This document shows, one piece after another, positions 2,146-6,061 of a DNA stretch of 64,000 nucleotides. The position numbers and the translations under genes are program-made. The stretch is taken from positions 4,768,001 to 4,832,000 of the forward strand of contig CBDETK010000013.1 of assembly GCA_965242865.1 (NCBI GenBank). Direction: 5' to 3'. Origin of the DNA: Candidatus Latescibacterota bacterium. GTDB taxonomy: Bacteria; Latescibacterota; UBA2968; UBA8231. Below the pieces are notes generated by a model, which was given only the letters and a program-made list of their open reading frames with translations, did no database searches and was not told the DNA's origin. The first letter of the stretch is position 1. The number at the start of each line of letters is the position of its first letter.

Positions 2146-2296
2146 CATGCTAGACGAACTCCGCAAAATCCGCTATGCCCGCTTCCGCTTGGAGATGACG
2201 GCGATTGACAGGTTGCGGTTGCCGCCCTACAAGGGATCGACCTTTCGGGGAGCCTTTGGCCATACCTTCAAGCGGCTGGTTTGCGTCAAGCGGGAT
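2083..2296 (+). repeat. 214-bp direct repeat, copy 1 (3' end of AAA gene + 5' end of cas6)
   Basis: Near-identical (about 3 substitutions) to 6062-6275. Confidence 0.95.
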
Positions 2297-2305
2297 TTGT
2301 TTTGA
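2147..2305 (+). pseudogene. cas6: Truncated 5' copy of cas6 (52 codons)
   Basis: MLDELRKIRYARFRLEMTAIDRLRLPPYKGSTFRGAFGHTFKRLVCVKRDLF*, nearly identical to the start of the gene at 6126. Confidence 0.9.
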
Positions 2306-2386
2306 TCCAAGGGACTTGAAACCTCTTGGTGTGCTTCACGTCGAGGTGAATCTCTTGGCACAGTTTGACCCGTAGGAGATTGAAAC
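2295..2386 (+). CRISPR. Two strongly degenerate CRISPR repeats separated by a 40-nt spacer-sized segment
   Basis: ATTTGttttgatccaagggactTGAAAC (2295-2322) and gtTTGACCCG-TAGGaGATTGAAAC (2363-2386) align to the main repeat with internal deletions. Confidence 0.6.
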
Positions 2387-2441
2387 GTAGATTAGCTGCG
2401 GCATGGGACGATATGGGCTGACCTGAGAGGAGAGCCGGCGT

Positions 2442-2801
2442 ATGGCTGAACAAAGTGCTTTGATTTTAGGTGCTCTATTGCATGATATTGGAAAGTTCTG
2501 GCAGCGGTCCGGTATTCGCAGAAGGCACGAGAATTTGGGGGCGGAATTTTTGGATTTGCCCGTTATTCGGGATAAGATCGAGGCATTGGTTGATCTTAGG
2601 GACGTTCAAAACATCATCTCTGATCACCATGAACCGGGCATGTATGATATACTCGTCCGCATTGCTCAGATTTCCGATAGACTTGCTTCTGGTGAACGTC
2701 GTGCATCGGGGAGAGGCGAAACCCAAACGCCGTGGGAGACACCATTGAAATCCGTTTTCGCACAGGTTTACAACCAAGAAGGGAGACTTTCAAAAATTTG
2801 A
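2442..2801 (+). CDS. Stand-alone or truncated Cas10-type HD nuclease domain
   Basis: GALLHDIGKF, HENLG, DHHE, SDRLASGER motifs as in the Csm1 N-terminus; RBS gaggag; the stop codon lies inside a CRISPR repeat. Confidence 0.8.
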   Translation: MAEQSALILGALLHDIGKFWQRSGIRRRHENLGAEFLDLPVIRDKIEALVDLRDVQNIISDHHEPGMYDILVRIAQISDRLASGERRASGRGETQTPWETPLKSVFAQVYNQEGRLSKI

Positions 2802-2833
2802 AGTGTTGACCCTATTTCTACGAGGATTGAAAC
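2796..2833 (+). CRISPR. Solitary CRISPR repeat variant
   Basis: ATTTGAAGTGTTGACCCtATTTCTAcgaGGATTGAAAC versus the consensus repeat. Confidence 0.92.
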
Positions 2834-2878
2834 TCAACAACTTTCTTTTGCGTATCCACAGACAGCCGCTATAAAAAG

Positions 2879-2920
2879 AAGGGGCGGATACAGAAAATCG
2901 TTTTCTGTATCCGCCCCTTT
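2879..2920. terminator. Long perfect hairpin, terminator-like
   Basis: aaggggcggatacagaaaa-tcg-ttttctgtatccgccccttt. Confidence 0.7.
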
Positions 2921-2951
2921 CATTCCCCAAAACCCTATAAGGAGGGTTATT

Positions 2952-3884
2952 ATGCGACATTATTTAAGTACTAGTGGTAATCCAGAGGCCGTTCAAAGGG
3001 CCTATGAATGGATAGAGCAAGAACTGCGGCCAGTGGGCGGCGTTGTCATAACTAGCGGTGGGTATTCCTGTCATGGTTCGGTAGCCCGTAAGTGTTTGGA
3101 GAGAAGTGGACTACTCGACCATACTGCCGAAAGCATCCTTATAACAGAGGATGCCAATTATTCCCGGGAATGGCCTCATTACCCCAGCGGCATAGGATGT
3201 CTTTATGTTTCTCATCCGTATATGCAACGTCTGGAGCAGGAGCATGAGGGAGGTCTTGATAAAATTATTCAAGACATAAGCCATCGCTTAGAGGATGAGA
3301 ATATCAGCCTACTGCAAATAGATAGTAAGTATAGCTGGTATTATCCCGGCCGCTCTACCACAATCATCTATGGCGATACCGATCTTTTTACTACGCTATT
3401 TGCTAACGATGTCTTGGGTAATGACGAACAGGCTCGTTTTTTTGGGTTTGAGGCTGGGCCAAACAGCAGTTATGCCCTGAGAAAGCAGTTCGTCGAGGAT
3501 TTAAGCAAAGCCCAGGGATACTTTCCTCATCTTCCAACAGAAGGAGAGCTAAATCGGGAGTTATGCCAAGAGGAAAAGGATATGGAGCAAGAAAAGGTGG
3601 ATGCCGTAGAACGTCTTGCCTATATGATTTCTCGTAGCTATGGCTATAACGCATGGAAAGATGCAGCAAGAAGGGGCGATACGAAATGGGCTACTGCATT
3701 TATTGTAGATAGCATTACTTGCGCTAACGCCTATGAGGGTTTTGACCCCAGCGAGCTGAATGACCGTGCTGACGCTATCCATCATCATCTACTCAAGCGA
3801 GTAGAGAGCGGGGGATGGGATTTTCCTGATAGGGATGAGGGGATATTCGACCCAAAGTTTCTTCGGTCCTCTTTTGGCAGATAG
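2952..3884 (+). CDS. Hypothetical protein (310 aa), AT-rich, between CRISPR repeats
   Basis: Long ORF with RBS aaggagg; no family recognised. Confidence 0.75.
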   Translation: MRHYLSTSGNPEAVQRAYEWIEQELRPVGGVVITSGGYSCHGSVARKCLERSGLLDHTAESILITEDANYSREWPHYPSGIGCLYVSHPYMQRLEQEHEGGLDKIIQDISHRLEDENISLLQIDSKYSWYYPGRSTTIIYGDTDLFTTLFANDVLGNDEQARFFGFEAGPNSSYALRKQFVEDLSKAQGYFPHLPTEGELNRELCQEEKDMEQEKVDAVERLAYMISRSYGYNAWKDAARRGDTKWATAFIVDSITCANAYEGFDPSELNDRADAIHHHLLKRVESGGWDFPDRDEGIFDPKFLRSSFGR

Positions 3885-3899
3885 TAACACCTAACATGG

Positions 3900-3946
3900 G
3901 AAGAGGCGGATACAGAATTTCATTTTCTGAAACCGCCTCTTCTTTT
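3900..3946 (+). terminator. Hairpin terminator, related in sequence to 2879-2920
   Basis: gaagaggcggatacagaa..ttctgaaaccgcctcttc followed by a T-run. Confidence 0.7.
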
Positions 3947-4242
3947 ATATCAACTAATAAAAGAGTTAGAAATTTAGCCAAGCACGGATTTGCTTGGCCA
4001 TTGTTACCCAAAACAAACTATTTGGGGAGGCCCCTTCAGTATCGACGCCCATGCCTAAAAGGCGGTCAAATATTCGTAATGCTAACTCAAGTTTTTTCGC
4101 TTCTGAGACAGAAAGAGGGTATTTTACTGATAGCATCACTATCATTATCCCTTAACTCCCATATAACCTCATCAGGCATATCCTACATAAAAATTGCTTC
4201 GCATGAACCGGCAAAAGCTGCATAGATTTGCCTAAGCTGGAC

Positions 4243-4279
4243 ATTTGAAGTGTTGACCCGATTTCTAGGGGATTGAAAC
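4243..4279 (+). CRISPR. Solitary perfect CRISPR repeat preceded by an AT-rich, leader-like region
   Basis: Exact 37/37 match to the array repeat. Confidence 0.97.
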
Positions 4280-4386
4280 CCGTGGGCCTCGCCAGCAAGT
4301 GCGACGCCATCGTCGAAATCTCGCTCGTCCGGCTCCCGCAAGAGGGTTTCTAACCAACTCTTTAACACTGAGAAAGGACAAGGATC

Positions 4387-5448
4387 ATGACCTGTAACAA
4401 GGACGACAAAGTACTATACAAGTACTACAGCCTTGCTGAGAAAGACATCGGATATACGCTCGCTGCACTGGAAGGATGATACGTCTGGCTTGCAAACCCC
4501 GCCGAGTTCTCCGATTGCTTTGATAATCCATTATCGTTCTCAAAGCACTTCAATATAGATCCTTTCCCGATGACTTGTAACACATTGCGACCCGAATACA
4601 TGCGCGAGACCTATAAATACCTAAAAGACGAAAGAGAAAAATACGAAAACACCGTCAAGGGCGATAGAGTGTTCTACTGGGGAGACGAAAAATTACATCA
4701 TCCCCTTGTCAATAAGTTCATGAACATCATGAACATTTGGGAAAAAATTAAACCAAATTACCGCATGGGATGTACAATAGACGGATTACGATCTTTCCTT
4801 TTTAATGATCTCGGGATCTGTTGCTTTACGTCAGATAATGGAAACCCCTTTATGTGGGATAAATACGCATCAGGATACAGCGGACTGTGTGCAGAATTCG
4901 CTTTTGATGATGAATACAAATTCCCTGAAAAAATCGAATATAGCAAAGAAAAAGCGATCAAAACAACAGACGACGAAACCAATGAATTAAGGCCATCCCT
5001 TATTAAAATCCTAAAAAATCCAACCAAGTTCGACAATCAGTTCTTCGTCAAAACTAAAGAATACCTCGGAGAACAAGAACACCGTCACTTGGAATACTTC
5101 GTCCCATCTCATTACAATCAACTCTTCCCGACCTCGGACGATGAAAAAGAGAAAAGGAAAAGAGAACAATACAAGCCCCGACTAAAATCGATCTGCTTTG
5201 GGTACAGGACAACAAGAGCAATGAGAAAAATATGTTGTCGGCTGGTCGCCCAGGACGTAGAGATACTTCAATTTGAATCCGATCCTTACTTTGTTGACAG
5301 ATTGAAACGCCCAACGATTACAACCACAAGCAATAAAGACCCCCTTACCGCTGGTGACGTTGTACGATACATAGACAAAGGAGCAATATCCTTTAATGCA
5401 GACAGTAAAAAATTACAAAGTATCCTGAAACTACTCAACGATTTTTAG
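4387..5448 (+). pseudogene. DUF2971 family protein with in-frame TGA at 4477-4479 (open from ATG 4570)
   Basis: N-terminal LYKYY..G*YVWLANPAEFSDCFD is in frame with MWDKYASGYSGLCAEF and KTKEYLGEQEHR (DUF2971-like motifs). Confidence 0.7.
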
Positions 5449-5469
5449 TCCACACCTACCCAAAGCGTT

Positions 5470-5508
5470 GTTTGAAGTGTTGACACCCGATTTCTAGGGT
5501 ATTGAAAC
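5470..5508 (+). CRISPR. Solitary CRISPR repeat variant
   Basis: gTTTGAAGTGTTGACacCCGATTTCTAGGGtATTGAAAC (2-nt insertion, 2 substitutions). Confidence 0.92.
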
Positions 5509-5552
5509 TGCTTTGGATATATCTATTTAACCCTTTATCTGAGGAGGAAACG

Positions 5553-5915
5553 ATGCTACAATCAGTAGTATTAGCTGTTCCGTTTGGCGGGCTGCTAATG
5601 CTTGCGTTTTTCTGGTACGTTTGTATTGCTCATGGAAAAACAGAGCTTAGCGGATACGTATATACGTTTCACTTAGCTTGGACGTGTTCTCTGCTGTGGT
5701 GGGCTATATCTTCTAATCGTTGGCTGGCTGTAGGCTTAGCTTGGATCGCATATCTTGTTGCGAGAGACCAGACCCTTAGCAATGTTCATTTTATAGATGA
5801 GCGAGGCTTAGTTAGTCTGCAATTCGTAGCCAGAGACGCCTTATTCTATGTCAACGCTTTAGGGCCTTTGCCTATAGAGCTTCCTTATTCCCTTTACTTT
5901 TGTATTTTCTGCTAG
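5553..5915 (+). CDS. Small membrane protein (120 aa) between CRISPR repeats
   Basis: RBS gaggagg before ATG 5553; about 3 hydrophobic segments. Confidence 0.65.
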   Translation: MLQSVVLAVPFGGLLMLAFFWYVCIAHGKTELSGYVYTFHLAWTCSLLWWAISSNRWLAVGLAWIAYLVARDQTLSNVHFIDERGLVSLQFVARDALFYVNALGPLPIELPYSLYFCIFC

Positions 5916-5986
5916 CCAAACCAGCCACTAATTGGTCTTCGGCCAAGAATAGCTTAACGGGAAGGGGGTTTTTCTATTCTTCTTGC

Positions 5987-6023
5987 GTGTGAAGTGTTGA
6001 CCCGATTTCTAGGGGGTTGGAAC
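5987..6023 (+). CRISPR. Solitary CRISPR repeat variant followed by a 38-nt spacer-sized segment
   Basis: gTgTGAAGTGTTGACCCGATTTCTAGGGGgTTGgAAC. Confidence 0.9.
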
Positions 6024-6061
6024 ATCCGTCGTCGTGGCTCGCTGTCTCGTATATACCCTCA

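Follow-up and report, generated by a model that had tools for sequence, protein, structure and literature searches.

A block of about 3.8 kb (2297-6061) separates an AAA-ATPase/PD-(D/E)XK gene from cas6 in the type III-A + III-D CRISPR-Cas locus of a sponge-associated Latescibacterota bacterium. It holds foreign genes set between copies of the host's own CRISPR repeat and is framed by a 214-bp direct duplication. Coordinates refer to the window, the whole stretch of 64,000 nucleotides analyzed here, and every feature named below is on the + strand apart from one strandless hairpin. The reading we favor, with roughly even confidence, sees the block as an orphan mini-array of the host repeat type, now eroding, that arose through recombination at the edges of repeats and is transferred by homologous recombination. 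It is not a proven gene-capture system and looks like a decaying relic that is gained or lost whole.

Host locus and framing duplication

The AAA-ATPase gene (490-2145; AAA-ATPase_like, Pfam PF09820, 4.7e-62; PDDEXK_9, PF08011, 4e-17) borders the CRISPR-Cas locus on the left. Its family is multi-copy within the genus, and relatives have numerous paralogues with 72-88% identity. The site between this gene and cas6 is an insertion hot spot. The block that occupies it has a GC content of 44.4%, compared with 61.6% and 63.9% in its flanks, and lies 22 kb away from the main array. The left copy of the duplication (2083-2296) consists of 63 nt of the AAA-ATPase 3' end, separated by 1 nt from the initial 150 nt of cas6, and the right copy (6062-6275) runs on into full-length cas6; base-by-base comparison found 211 of 214 positions identical, with three mismatches. 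Since this duplication, overlooked in the original prediction, frames the block, the segment at 2147-2296 is a truncated second copy of the start of cas6 (cas6'), and the ORF at 2147-2305 shares an identical start with that at 6126.

The cas6 gene itself (6126-7056) is frameshifted in this strain, where it is split into frames 6126-6830 and 6505-7056 that both match PF10040; two extra bases after 6785 are found in strains X3 and X5 and none in run X1 (0 of 156.9 depth). Between cas6 and cas10 lies a second low-GC insertion (7048-9180; 48% GC) encoding a DNA methylase (PF01555) and a Bpu10I-type restriction enzyme (PF09549, 8.7e-81), which is outside the block but is the same kind of event. In X3 this restriction-modification insert is missing, a contig joining 7047 to 9181, and cas6 is intact.

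Strains and assembly

Run X3, which stems from another study, carries the block at the identical site, its units in the same order. The X3 block differs from the present one at 16 of 1811, 15 of 639, and 9 of 1193 letters, and the flanking host DNA of the two differs at 22 of 448 and 36 of 801, so that the block is less diverged between the two strains than its flanks. The block is missing from one co-occurring strain: in the dominant strain of X5, depth is about 200 on cas6 and 0-10 over the block.

The original prediction allowed that the block might be an assembly chimera. Such a chimera could have been joined via the duplicated 214 bp or via the repeats, and short-read contigs do end at both the perfect repeat and the duplication. 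That explanation is barely credible, because independent contigs of runs X1 and X3 (two studies) span the left junction (2267-4269, 2270-4080) as well as the right (4253-6091, 4894-6091), the two copies of the duplication are distinguishable at three positions, and depth is even over block and flanks (124-142 in the block and 157 in the flanks in run X1). The bridging contigs have 30-33 letters on their short side; with the bridge rule set at 31 letters, the X3 left bridge, which has 30 (27 of them inside the duplication), falls just under it.

Repeats in the block

The main-array repeat is 37 nt long and occurs in 57 mismatch-free copies at 28507-32849. A genome-wide nhmmer search of the 6.0-Mb assembly with a profile of repeat variants found the family confined to the main array and the block, where all copies lie on the + strand, as in the main array; the 28-nt repeat core gave no chance matches in 100 shuffles. 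The block repeats are of the host type. Six co-oriented copies more than 22 kb from the array had been reported, of which four are solid: R1 (2796-2833; 38 nt, a 1-nt insertion plus substitutions; E 3.2e-8), R2 (4243-4279; a perfect copy; E 1.3e-11), R3 (5470-5508; 39 nt, a 2-nt insertion at 5483 that is missing from strain X3; E 1.5e-8), and R4 (5987-6023; 37 nt, five substitutions; E 6e-9). The remaining two are weak. R0b (2363-2386) is degenerate and shortened at its 5' end, with a marginal genome-wide E of 0.93 and a 14-nt 3' end that matches the repeat at 93%; R0a (2295-2322), which starts with ATTTG and ends with CTTGAAAC, would be a heavily degenerate copy and was not found by the genome-wide nhmmer search. 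These two are recognized solely by their common ...TTGAAAC ends and 40-nt spacing. The reported inter-repeat lengths of 40, 409, 1409, 1190, and 478 nt are correct, as is the presence of one co-oriented main ORF in each long interval.

Three of the block repeats carry four to five changes each, compared with none in the 57 array repeats, and in R4 the changes include the 3' handle, which reads GTTGGAAC. The repeats appear to be decaying, and any present role of theirs is putative. This bears on the suggestion that a read-through transcript is cleaved by Cas6 at every repeat into single-gene mRNAs with a AUUGAAAC 5' tag, or, in a variant, that crRNAs arise from the first ~40 nt past each repeat and cargo expression is tied to CRISPR expression. 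Type III crRNAs are trimmed from their 3' end, so that a repeat could still give a guide whatever sequence comes after it. The co-orientation of repeats and main ORFs, the ribosome-binding site (RBS) ahead of each main cargo ORF, and the ATTGAAAC end kept by three of the four solid repeats would suit such a role. It is nevertheless improbable: besides the substitutions and indels in the repeats, a 19-bp perfect-stem hairpin (H1, 2874-2919) lies between R1 and the 310-aa gene, upstream of that gene, and a terminator-like hairpin with a T-run (H2, 3900-3946), homologous to H1 (83% alike), follows it; cas6 is frameshifted in this strain, and promoter-like sites show no excess (6 seen, 6.5 expected).

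Cargo genes

The first cargo ORF (2442-2801) is a 5' fragment of a foreign cas10/csm1 (cas10') of 119 codons, with its stop codon within R1. The Cas10 HD domain previously assigned to it is borne out by a match to PF01966 (4e-10), but the ORF is merely the first 119 codons of such a gene, cut off by the repeat, and matches positions 2-105 of 753 in TIGR02578. From its RBS (~2424) to 2795 the DNA is about 80% identical to the cas10 5' ends of genomes G036 and G038, compared with only 37% amino acid identity to the host Cas10. Except for this fragment (~80% to cas10 of another genus), cargo DNA had no match in the 131 other genomes of the class.

The orphan 310-aa gene (2952-3884) encodes a protein for which a search of 5.8 billion proteins gave just three relatives (98, 69, and 42% identity); no family was found in Pfam, NCBIfam, PADLOC, or PHROGs, and its structure model is poor (pLDDT 45.7). 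The orphan 120-aa gene (5553-5915) has as its only relative a 99% copy, which lies on a contig equal in length to that of P0004 (see below); its product is hydrophobic, and the earlier label of membrane protein, judged by eye from the sequence, is putative.

The gene at 4387-5448, originally described as DUF2971, matches that Pfam family below threshold (E 0.027) and is better placed by matches to PADLOC PDC-S31 (3e-13) and phrog_1762 (9e-16); an in-frame TGA at 4477-4479 had been overlooked. An intact relative of 349 aa (P0004) has Gly at the TGA codon. Between strains this gene differs by 9- and 3-nt in-frame indels, and a non-coding stretch at 4119 by a 2-nt indel, which indicates that at least one cargo gene is under coding constraint. 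The PDC-S31-like gene is thus nonsense-mutated here but intact elsewhere.

The cargo is foreign, and three of its genes are orphan. The block could be the remnant of an anti-CRISPR island of a mobile element, recombined into the host locus, in which the repeat copies served as RNA decoys (Racr, or solitary repeat units) and the cas10 HD fragment and orphans are candidate inhibitors. Foreign composition and orphan cargo fit this picture, as do the resemblance of the repeats to those of the host, the truncated Cas10 piece, which has an RBS to itself and could act as a decoy, the match of the PDC-S31-like gene to a phage protein family, and the precedent of Racr, solitary repeats in viral genomes, as given in an excerpt of PMC10651486. 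It is very improbable, since neither the block nor the DNA next to it contains virus or plasmid hallmark genes, viral_contigs yielded no copy of the repeat, relatives of the 310-aa protein are absent from viral_contigs, phages, and plasmids, and the block is flanked by host duplications and not by element ends.

Relatives and repeat-edge junctions

In three of the five sister species with a syntenic junction (G007, G001, G022), the AAA-ATPase gene abuts full-length cas6 with no block between them. The other two, G019 and G023, have unrelated inserts of ~950 and 543 bp at the hot spot, and a search of the G019 insert found no repeat. Across strains and species, the block is present or absent as a whole. 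The integron-like system that had been proposed is not supported: the two block-bearing strain lineages share units and order, variation is all-or-none, the hot spot also takes repeat-free inserts (G019, G023), and a profile scan of block ORFs and neighbors gave no match to integrase or transposase families. In six genomes (G002, G004, G005, G012, G014, G110) a lone repeat comes after an AAA-ATPase gene that may or may not be accompanied by a piece of cas6, and these scars point to frequent deletion and rearrangement of such loci.

The related proposal that repeats act as capture or recombination sites survives in part, in that repeat edges are points of recombination. Two gene fragments terminate at the first base of a repeat: cas6' ends at the first bases of the repeat at 2295, with a 2-nt overlap, and cas10' ends at 2795, immediately 5' of R1. 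Host DNA restarts 38 nt past R4, a normal spacer length, and G004 has a cas6'|repeat junction of the same type. Among the five junctions inspected here and in relatives, three start exactly at the repeat and two are inexact scars, with fillers of 9 nt in G012 and 13 nt in G110. Segments of spacer-like size are also found within the block. S0 (2323-2362) has the modal length of main-array spacers (40 nt in 23 of 56; 36-43 nt in 54 of 56), and a 38-nt segment (6024-6061) follows R4, with host DNA directly 3' of it; a 67-nt stretch after R2 (4280-4346) is GC-rich (0.55-0.80 in 20-nt windows, then ~0.4). None of the three has a match elsewhere in the genome or in viral_contigs.

Could the kilobase-sized intervals have been inserted by CRISPR-linked reactions, as 'giant spacers', and not by generic recombination? 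Conceivable routes are attack of a spacer/repeat boundary by Cas1-Cas2 with over-long DNA, at a half-site or full site; crossover of a spacer with a matching site in an invader; and recombination of an array repeat with a repeat copy on a mobile element. A circle of six repeat-'spacer' units, having looped out, would then have re-entered via a self-derived 'spacer', the 214-bp AAA-ATPase/cas6 piece, which would produce the duplication; the outcome would be integron-like, but without an integrase. A circular reading of the block does give six repeats and six intervals, and the organism does sample self DNA, since 17 of the 56 spacers in the main array have a match on its chromosome. The exact repeat-start junctions and the 38 nt between the last repeat and host DNA are in keeping with such an origin. 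In the Sulfurovum array L092, a 2272-nt interval between two perfect repeats opens mid-gene directly after the repeat and carries phage genes (phrog_1114, 5.7e-22; phrog_1120, 2.8e-11), and in G012 a GH108 endolysin fragment follows a repeat. Repeat x repeat integration of elements has already been proposed in print, as stated in an excerpt of PMC8616872, citing Faure 2019. We regard this origin as possible but rather unlikely, however, because the 67 nt after R2 and the 38 nt preceding the host piece are unrelated to the DNA 3' of them, which indicates composite intervals and not single captures. None of 1026 distinct spacers from host and related arrays matches the block, the repeat has no counterpart in viral_contigs, as noted above, and the hot spot also accepts repeat-free DNA. 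Long intervals are rare besides, with one each in 3 of 12 relatives' loci and one in 6 of 58 stretches.

In the long intervals elsewhere that were checked for ORFs, all eight ORFs listed (one each in G007, G005, G012, G019, and L081, and three in L092) are co-oriented with the repeats. Four of them (G007, G005, L081, and the third of L092) lack family support, and that of G019 is a host gene beside the array.

Formation and fate of the block

For a recombination-built mini-array, the following course can be envisaged. Its 'spacers' would be 0.4-1.4-kb pieces of foreign DNA that were joined when an older array broke and recombined at its spacer/repeat boundary. Together with one 214-bp copy, the block would travel between strains by ordinary homologous recombination, looping out via the duplication and re-entering at an empty site in Campbell fashion. 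Whole genes would be left where pieces with useful genes, or harmless co-oriented ones, were retained. For the 214-bp duplication, a tandem locus pair followed by deletions would fit equally well.

Several observations stand against the mini-array reading. Pieces taken at random from gene-dense DNA should for the most part end inside genes, yet the four long intervals have seven of their eight ends in intergenic DNA and all four main ORFs are oriented like the repeats; the selection invoked to explain this is an assumption. The uniform co-orientation of ORFs elsewhere may point to a rule that would not be expected of a pure relic; R2 is still perfect, at least one cargo gene is under coding constraint, and two of the five scar junctions are inexact.

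If they act at all, the cargo genes would be ordinary accessory genes, one of them a candidate for phage defense, and the locus appears to be degrading in this strain, in which cas6 carries a frameshift and the PDC-S31-like gene a stop codon.

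Boundaries and Repeats of the Block

The block (2297-6061) is foreign DNA lying between an AAA-ATPase gene (490-2145) and cas6 (6126-7056, + strand). Its GC content is 44.4% against 61.6% and 63.9% on its two sides, in keeping with the original prediction that it is more AT-rich than the host genes. A stretch of host DNA present as two direct copies (2083-2296 and 6062-6275; 211 of 214 bases identical) frames it. Of the 214 bp in this segment, the first 63 are the end of the AAA-ATPase/PD-(D/E)XK gene and the last 150 the beginning of cas6, with a single nucleotide between them. 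Since the left copy contains these 150 nt, it represents a truncated cas6 (2147-2296), which breaks off at the ATTTG that opens a repeat-like sequence at 2295, with an overlap of 2 nt. On the right side, 38 nt follow the last repeat before the host segment begins. The two copies of the duplication differ at three positions and therefore are not one sequence assembled twice. Both junctions are bridged by contigs from two sequencing runs belonging to two studies, and in a source-like run (X1) depth is 124-142 over the block, similar to the 157 of its flanks; an assembly chimera, one of the outcomes that would have refuted the original prediction, is thus very improbable.

Copies of the main-array repeat are found on the + strand, which is the strand of the array, at 2796-2833, 4243-4279 (a perfect copy), 5470-5508 and 5987-6023, 22 kb upstream of the array; in a profile search of the whole 6.0-Mb assembly, the repeat family was confined to the main array and the block. 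Six copies had been predicted, of which these four are solid; of the remaining two (2295-2322 and 2363-2386, 40 nt apart), the profile search returned that at 2363 with an E-value of 0.93 and did not detect that at 2295. Their common ends and 40-nt spacing make it plausible that they are trailer-type repeats. Like a canonical array, the block holds at least three near-identical direct repeats of 23-47 nt (four copies at E <= 3.2e-8), three of them carrying 4-5 changes each. The intervals of 409, 1409, 1190 and 478 nt depart from the regular spacing of such an array, and the sole spacer-sized segment between block repeats is the 40 nt at 2323-2362. The block has no leader or adaptation genes of its own, cas1 and a leader being situated approximately 22 kb away and a truncated cas6 upstream.

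A re-reading of the sequence agreed with the predicted intervals and ORFs. No terminal inverted repeats were found at the interval ends, no transposase family of Pfam, NCBIfam, PADLOC or PHROGs matched the block ORFs, and no integrase or replication family of Pfam or NCBIfam was matched among the scanned ORFs of the block and its neighbors. Near-full genome matches were sought for segment 2323-2362 and the other spacer-like segments and none was found, and three 24-nt cores of spacer-like segments had zero matches in viral_contigs. Rfam yielded no match at gathering score; a CRISPR-DR35 match in the reverse orientation, below threshold, was discarded, as were two hairpin matches attributed to chance.

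Cargo Genes

The first long interval had been predicted to carry a gene for a Cas10 HD domain. The ORF (2442-2801) is indeed derived from cas10, and it is truncated: of a cas10/csm1 gene it retains the initial 119 codons, which match positions 2-105 of the 753 in TIGR02578. Homology extends from the ribosome-binding site to base 2795 and ends at the first base of the repeat at 2796. The fragment shares approximately 80% DNA identity with the cas10 5' ends of two genomes from another genus of the class, both of which carry a different CRISPR repeat, and 37% protein identity with the Cas10 of the host. Apart from this piece, the cargo DNA had no match in 131 other genomes of the class.

The 310-aa protein encoded in the second interval has three relatives among 5.8 billion proteins (98, 69 and 42% identity) and no family match in Pfam, NCBIfam, PADLOC or PHROGs. 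Searches of genome_contigs, metagenome_contigs, viral_contigs, plasmids and phages with the single sequence or a four-sequence alignment returned no match. An AlphaFold model built from the four sequences reached a pLDDT of 45.7, too poor for a fold search, and the Atlas leads weakly suggest an alpha/beta-hydrolase (0.84, below the 0.9 line). The gene is bracketed by two related long hairpins (83% alike), one with a 19-bp perfect stem and one terminator-like (3900-3946); no other block gene is bordered by them. An antisense ORF at 3966-4145 was rejected as a gene on account of a 2-nt indel between strains and the lack of a family match.

The third gene (4387-5448) had been assigned to DUF2971. 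It matches the related models of defence candidate PDC-S31 (3e-13) and phrog_1762 (9e-16), but the Pfam model itself (PF11185) scored 16.3 bits against a cut-off of 22 with an intact 349-aa relative (P0004). Codon 31 is an in-frame TGA, where the relative, 96% identical, has GGA; this rules out an alternative genetic code as its explanation. The fourth gene encodes a 120-aa hydrophobic protein with a single relative, a 99% twin, the contig of which equals in size that carrying the relative of the third gene. Between strains, the cargo proteins differ by 7, 10 and 1 residues.

Distribution of the Block among Strains

Strains were compared through four public sequencing runs, all as contigs. In X3, a sponge metagenome from another study, the block occupies the identical site with its parts in identical order. 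It differs there in 0.8-2.3% of letters, as against 4.5-4.9% in the adjoining host DNA, so that the block is less diverged than its surroundings. The differences include in-frame deletions of 9 nt and 3 nt in the third gene, a 2-nt indel in non-coding DNA at 4119 and the absence of a 2-nt insertion that the repeat at 5470 carries here. X3 is also without the 2.1-kb methylase/Bpu10I insert that follows cas6 in the present genome, position 7047 being joined directly to 9181. In the dominant strain of run X5, depth is approximately 200 on cas6 and 0-10 over both the block and the restriction-modification insert. The patterns in X1, X3 and X5 together indicate that the population contains strains with neither insert, with the block only, or with both.

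Had the repeats delimited exchangeable cassettes, as originally proposed, cassette content or order would vary at repeat boundaries. The same units occur in the same order in X1 and X3, the other differences among the four runs are all-or-none, and no joint inside the block was present among the 15 of 41 joints listed; the proposal thus found no backing in these strains.

The CRISPR-Cas Locus and Main Array

Gene families in the window place a type III-A locus first, followed by a type III-D module, a CARF-type gene, cas1 and the array. The III-A genes are cas6, cas10/csm1 (9194-11527), csm2, csm3, csm4, csm5 and a TM1812-type gene. A leader (28314-28506) separates cas1 (26984-28015) from the main array (28507-32849), which has 57 identical 37-nt repeats and spacers of 36-49 nt (36-43 nt in 54 of 56). 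Sponge metagenomes are among the public runs that contain the stretch.

The cas6 gene is broken into two frames, 2 bases being missing near 6785. The same loss is seen in the independent assembly of run X1, and the frameshift is genuine in that source-like run; cas6 is intact in strains X3 and X5, X3 having two extra bases after 6785. These observations bear on the proposal that Cas6 might cut a transcript of the block at its repeats. The shared orientation of repeats and main ORFs would suit such putative processing, but the long hairpins, the decayed repeats and the broken cas6 all speak against it, and, on sequence grounds, we regard it as improbable. The CRISPR repeat itself is predicted to fold into a mere 3-bp stem, no better than shuffled sequence.

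Using a criterion of at least 90% identity across at least 90% of spacer length, 17 of the 56 main-array spacers (28544-32812) matched the chromosome outside the array, 12 of them at 100%. The targets are scattered along the 5.6-Mb contig, and one spacer (28777-28816) matches a 12-copy element. Matches to this chromosome at 94-97% were also obtained with spacers of two further Latescibacterota arrays. The self-matching spacers and the frameshifted cas6 together suggest either tolerated self-targeting or spacer uptake from the genomes of kin.

Several features of the surrounding DNA were recorded in passing. The DNA methylase and Bpu10I-type restriction enzyme pair (7048-9180; GC 48%) occupies precisely the space from the end of cas6 to the cas10 ribosome-binding site; absent from X3, it is 93-94% identical in two relatives (G019 and G110), where flanking genes are 86-95% identical. 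The AAA-ATPase_like/PDDEXK_9 genes (490-2145 and paralogues) are multi-copy, with at least seven matches in many genomes of the genus, and recur at the left boundary of CRISPR-Cas loci and their deletion scars. Tandem repeats of 129 and 66 nt (families D7-D9; 50455-51259) are contained in a minus-strand ORF region.

Related Loci and Junctions at Repeats

In three of the five sister species with a syntenic junction (G007, G001, and G022), the AAA-ATPase gene directly abuts a full-length cas6. The other two carry inserts of different kinds. In G019 (L021 7220-8160), an unrelated insert of approximately 950 bp contains an opposite-strand 283-aa ORF, lacks a repeat and comes with a second copy of 47 nt or more from the AAA-ATPase 3' end; in G023 (L014 958-1500), a 543-bp insert contains part of a dehydrogenase gene together with a small gene that appears antitoxin-like by eye. 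Since unrelated inserts without a repeat occupy the AAA-ATPase/cas6 site, it is a hot spot independent of CRISPR repeats.

Scars of CRISPR loci were found in six genomes (G002, G004, G005, G012, G014, and G110), in which a paralogue of the AAA-ATPase gene is followed, with or without a short start of cas6, by a lone repeat and ordinary genes. G110 has lost its entire CRISPR-Cas locus, with 82 nt of cas6, pieces of restriction-modification genes, 13 nt and one repeat remaining; in G004, cas6 ends after approximately 190 nt at the start of the repeat, and in G012, 9 nt separate the cas6 start from the repeat, which is followed by a fragment of a GH108 endolysin gene. Three of the five junctions readable against a known partner are exact to within 2 nt, an unlikely outcome were breakpoints spread evenly over the 77-nt unit, the count being small and made after the fact.

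Long intervals between repeats occur elsewhere. A repeat-profile search of 12 relatives' loci found one interval of 0.4-1.1 kb each in G005, G007, and G019. When 185,579 species were screened for the 3' core of the repeat, 58 stretches were obtained, six of which (G005, G019, G108, L081, L092, and L107) have a gap of 100-3000 nt; those of L107 and of G108 (with its duplicate L096) measure 185 and 102 nt, and a gap in L091 spans 5484 nt. One case is L092, from a Sulfurovum MAG, where 2272 nt of phage DNA (1652-3923, minus strand) lie between two perfect repeats in mid-array. This interval begins inside a gene immediately 3' of the repeat, and its genes (one for a tail tube, one with no assigned function and a PmgG-like head gene cut at its 5' end, where approximately 68 positions of the family profile are missing) are all co-oriented with the array. 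In every interval examined for ORFs, those of the block and of G007, G005, G012, G019, L081, and L092, the listed ORFs share the orientation of the repeats; there are four in the block and eight in the other loci. Of the latter, four are without family support and that of G019 is a host gene beside the array. In G019 (L049 5771-6889), this host hydrolase gene has the last array repeat on one side and, on the other, an additional repeat placed 2 nt ahead of the ATG of the next gene. The same two genes are found in the present genome near position 1818870 of contig C13, 3 Mb from the CRISPR locus and with the hydrolase truncated; rearrangement has thus altered the right flank of the locus between species. 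The spacer-plus-gene junction after the last array repeat of G019 was dismissed as ordinary flank, the same 32 nt preceding the same gene in G007.

These loci raise the possibility, which we consider unlikely, that arrays of this repeat family sometimes acquire 'giant spacers', kilobases of DNA inserted precisely where spacer and repeat meet, and that the units could loop out, re-enter and capture genes free of any integrase. The long intervals would then stem from CRISPR-linked reactions and a circle of six units would have re-entered via the self-derived piece, a doubtful sequence of events; the makers proposed, equally tentatively, are the adaptation machinery or spacer- or repeat-guided crossovers. 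Such an origin would suit the exactness of junctions at repeats, the phage fragment within the Sulfurovum array, the heavy sampling of self DNA by the main array and the arithmetic of a circle, the block plus one duplication copy giving six repeats and six intervals. It is at odds with the composite nature of the intervals, in which GC-rich stubs of 67 and 38 nt are alien to the DNA that follows, with the occupation of the same site by repeat-free inserts, and with the finding that none of 1026 distinct spacers from this and related arrays matches the block.

Comparison with Known Systems

Spacers of 100 nt or longer have been documented, mostly as transposon insertions; one study lists 14 in a set of several thousand unique ones (Kupczok et al., 2015, PMC4524480). 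They resemble the block in having normal-type repeats parted by far more than the length of a spacer. The block differs in lacking a transposase, in its series of four consecutive long intervals, each with a single non-transposon ORF in the orientation of the repeats, and in its position as a whole, which is outside the array and within a duplication. Standalone repeats outside arrays, often degraded, are reported in excess at the flanks of type III operons and their origin is put down to recombinogenic repeats; mini-arrays of two repeats 15-60 bp apart have also been described, and a regulatory role proposed for their spacer (Shmakov et al., 2023, 10.1101/2023.03.03.530964). The pair at 2295 and 2363 with its 40-nt spacer would have the form of such a mini-array, one of its repeats being marginal and the other undetected by profile, whereas the solid repeats of the block are 0.4-1.4 kb apart and bracket genes.

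It has been proposed that solitary repeat units allow an element to enter an array by recombination between repeats (Faure, 2019, quoted in PMC8616872), and RNA anti-CRISPRs consist of solitary repeat units on mobile elements (Camara-Wilpert, 2023, PMC10651486). Integration of this kind shares with the block host-type repeats beside foreign genes, and its predicted product is repeat-foreign DNA-repeat. The block, however, has no element genes, no viral copy of the repeat is known to us from the search (the 19-nt repeat core had no match in viral_contigs), and GC-rich composite stubs follow two of its repeats. An anti-CRISPR island of a mobile element, which the neighbouring of repeats and foreign genes might bring to mind, is very improbable, no element gene and no viral match having been found.

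Integrons offer a further likeness, having a row of co-oriented single-gene units with a recurring site between them and cargo foreign to the host. Every defining feature tested for the integron-like cassettes of the original prediction nevertheless failed: there is no intI-type integrase, the recurring site is a CRISPR repeat rather than an attC hairpin, and no variation at the level of units was seen between the strains compared. Recombination between spacers and protospacers reportedly takes place between phages and CRISPR loci (Varble, 2019, cited in PMC8616872). It would put invader DNA right after a repeat, as in the Sulfurovum array, and leaves the composite intervals of the block and the host-derived 214-bp piece unexplained. 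What sets the block apart from the known cases is the run of four transposase-free long intervals, outside the array and within a host duplication. No description of transposase-free, gene-size inter-repeat intervals was found in the literature searched; similar cases may be listed in the supplements of PMC4524480 and 10.1101/2023.03.03.530964.

Origin and Significance of the Block

The block is real and unusual, and is best filed as a variety of known CRISPR-array erosion and rearrangement rather than as a new system. We give about even chances to its being an eroding orphan mini-array of the host's repeat type. In such an array, breakage and rejoining where spacer meets repeat would have put foreign DNA in place of the spacers or added it to them. 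The block, as one unit, may have been gained and lost among strains by homologous recombination, with the 214-bp duplicates and the flanks as sites of exchange, perhaps by loop-out and re-entry; whole co-oriented genes would have persisted through selection. The block and its surroundings are decaying, the altered repeats being joined by the stop codon in the third gene and the cas6 frameshift.

If the block is a relic of this kind, it is a clear natural record of CRISPR repeats as breakpoints. It would also record how sponge symbionts rebuild and lose their CRISPR-Cas loci and how other defence genes invade these loci, and would show that a whole insert can spread among strains via plain homologous recombination. 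The self-matching spacers beside a broken cas6 provide a testable case of tolerated self-targeting. Were the bolder reading true, CRISPR adaptation or repeat-guided recombination could move whole genes, which would link CRISPR arrays to gene capture and bear on the assembly of defence islands.
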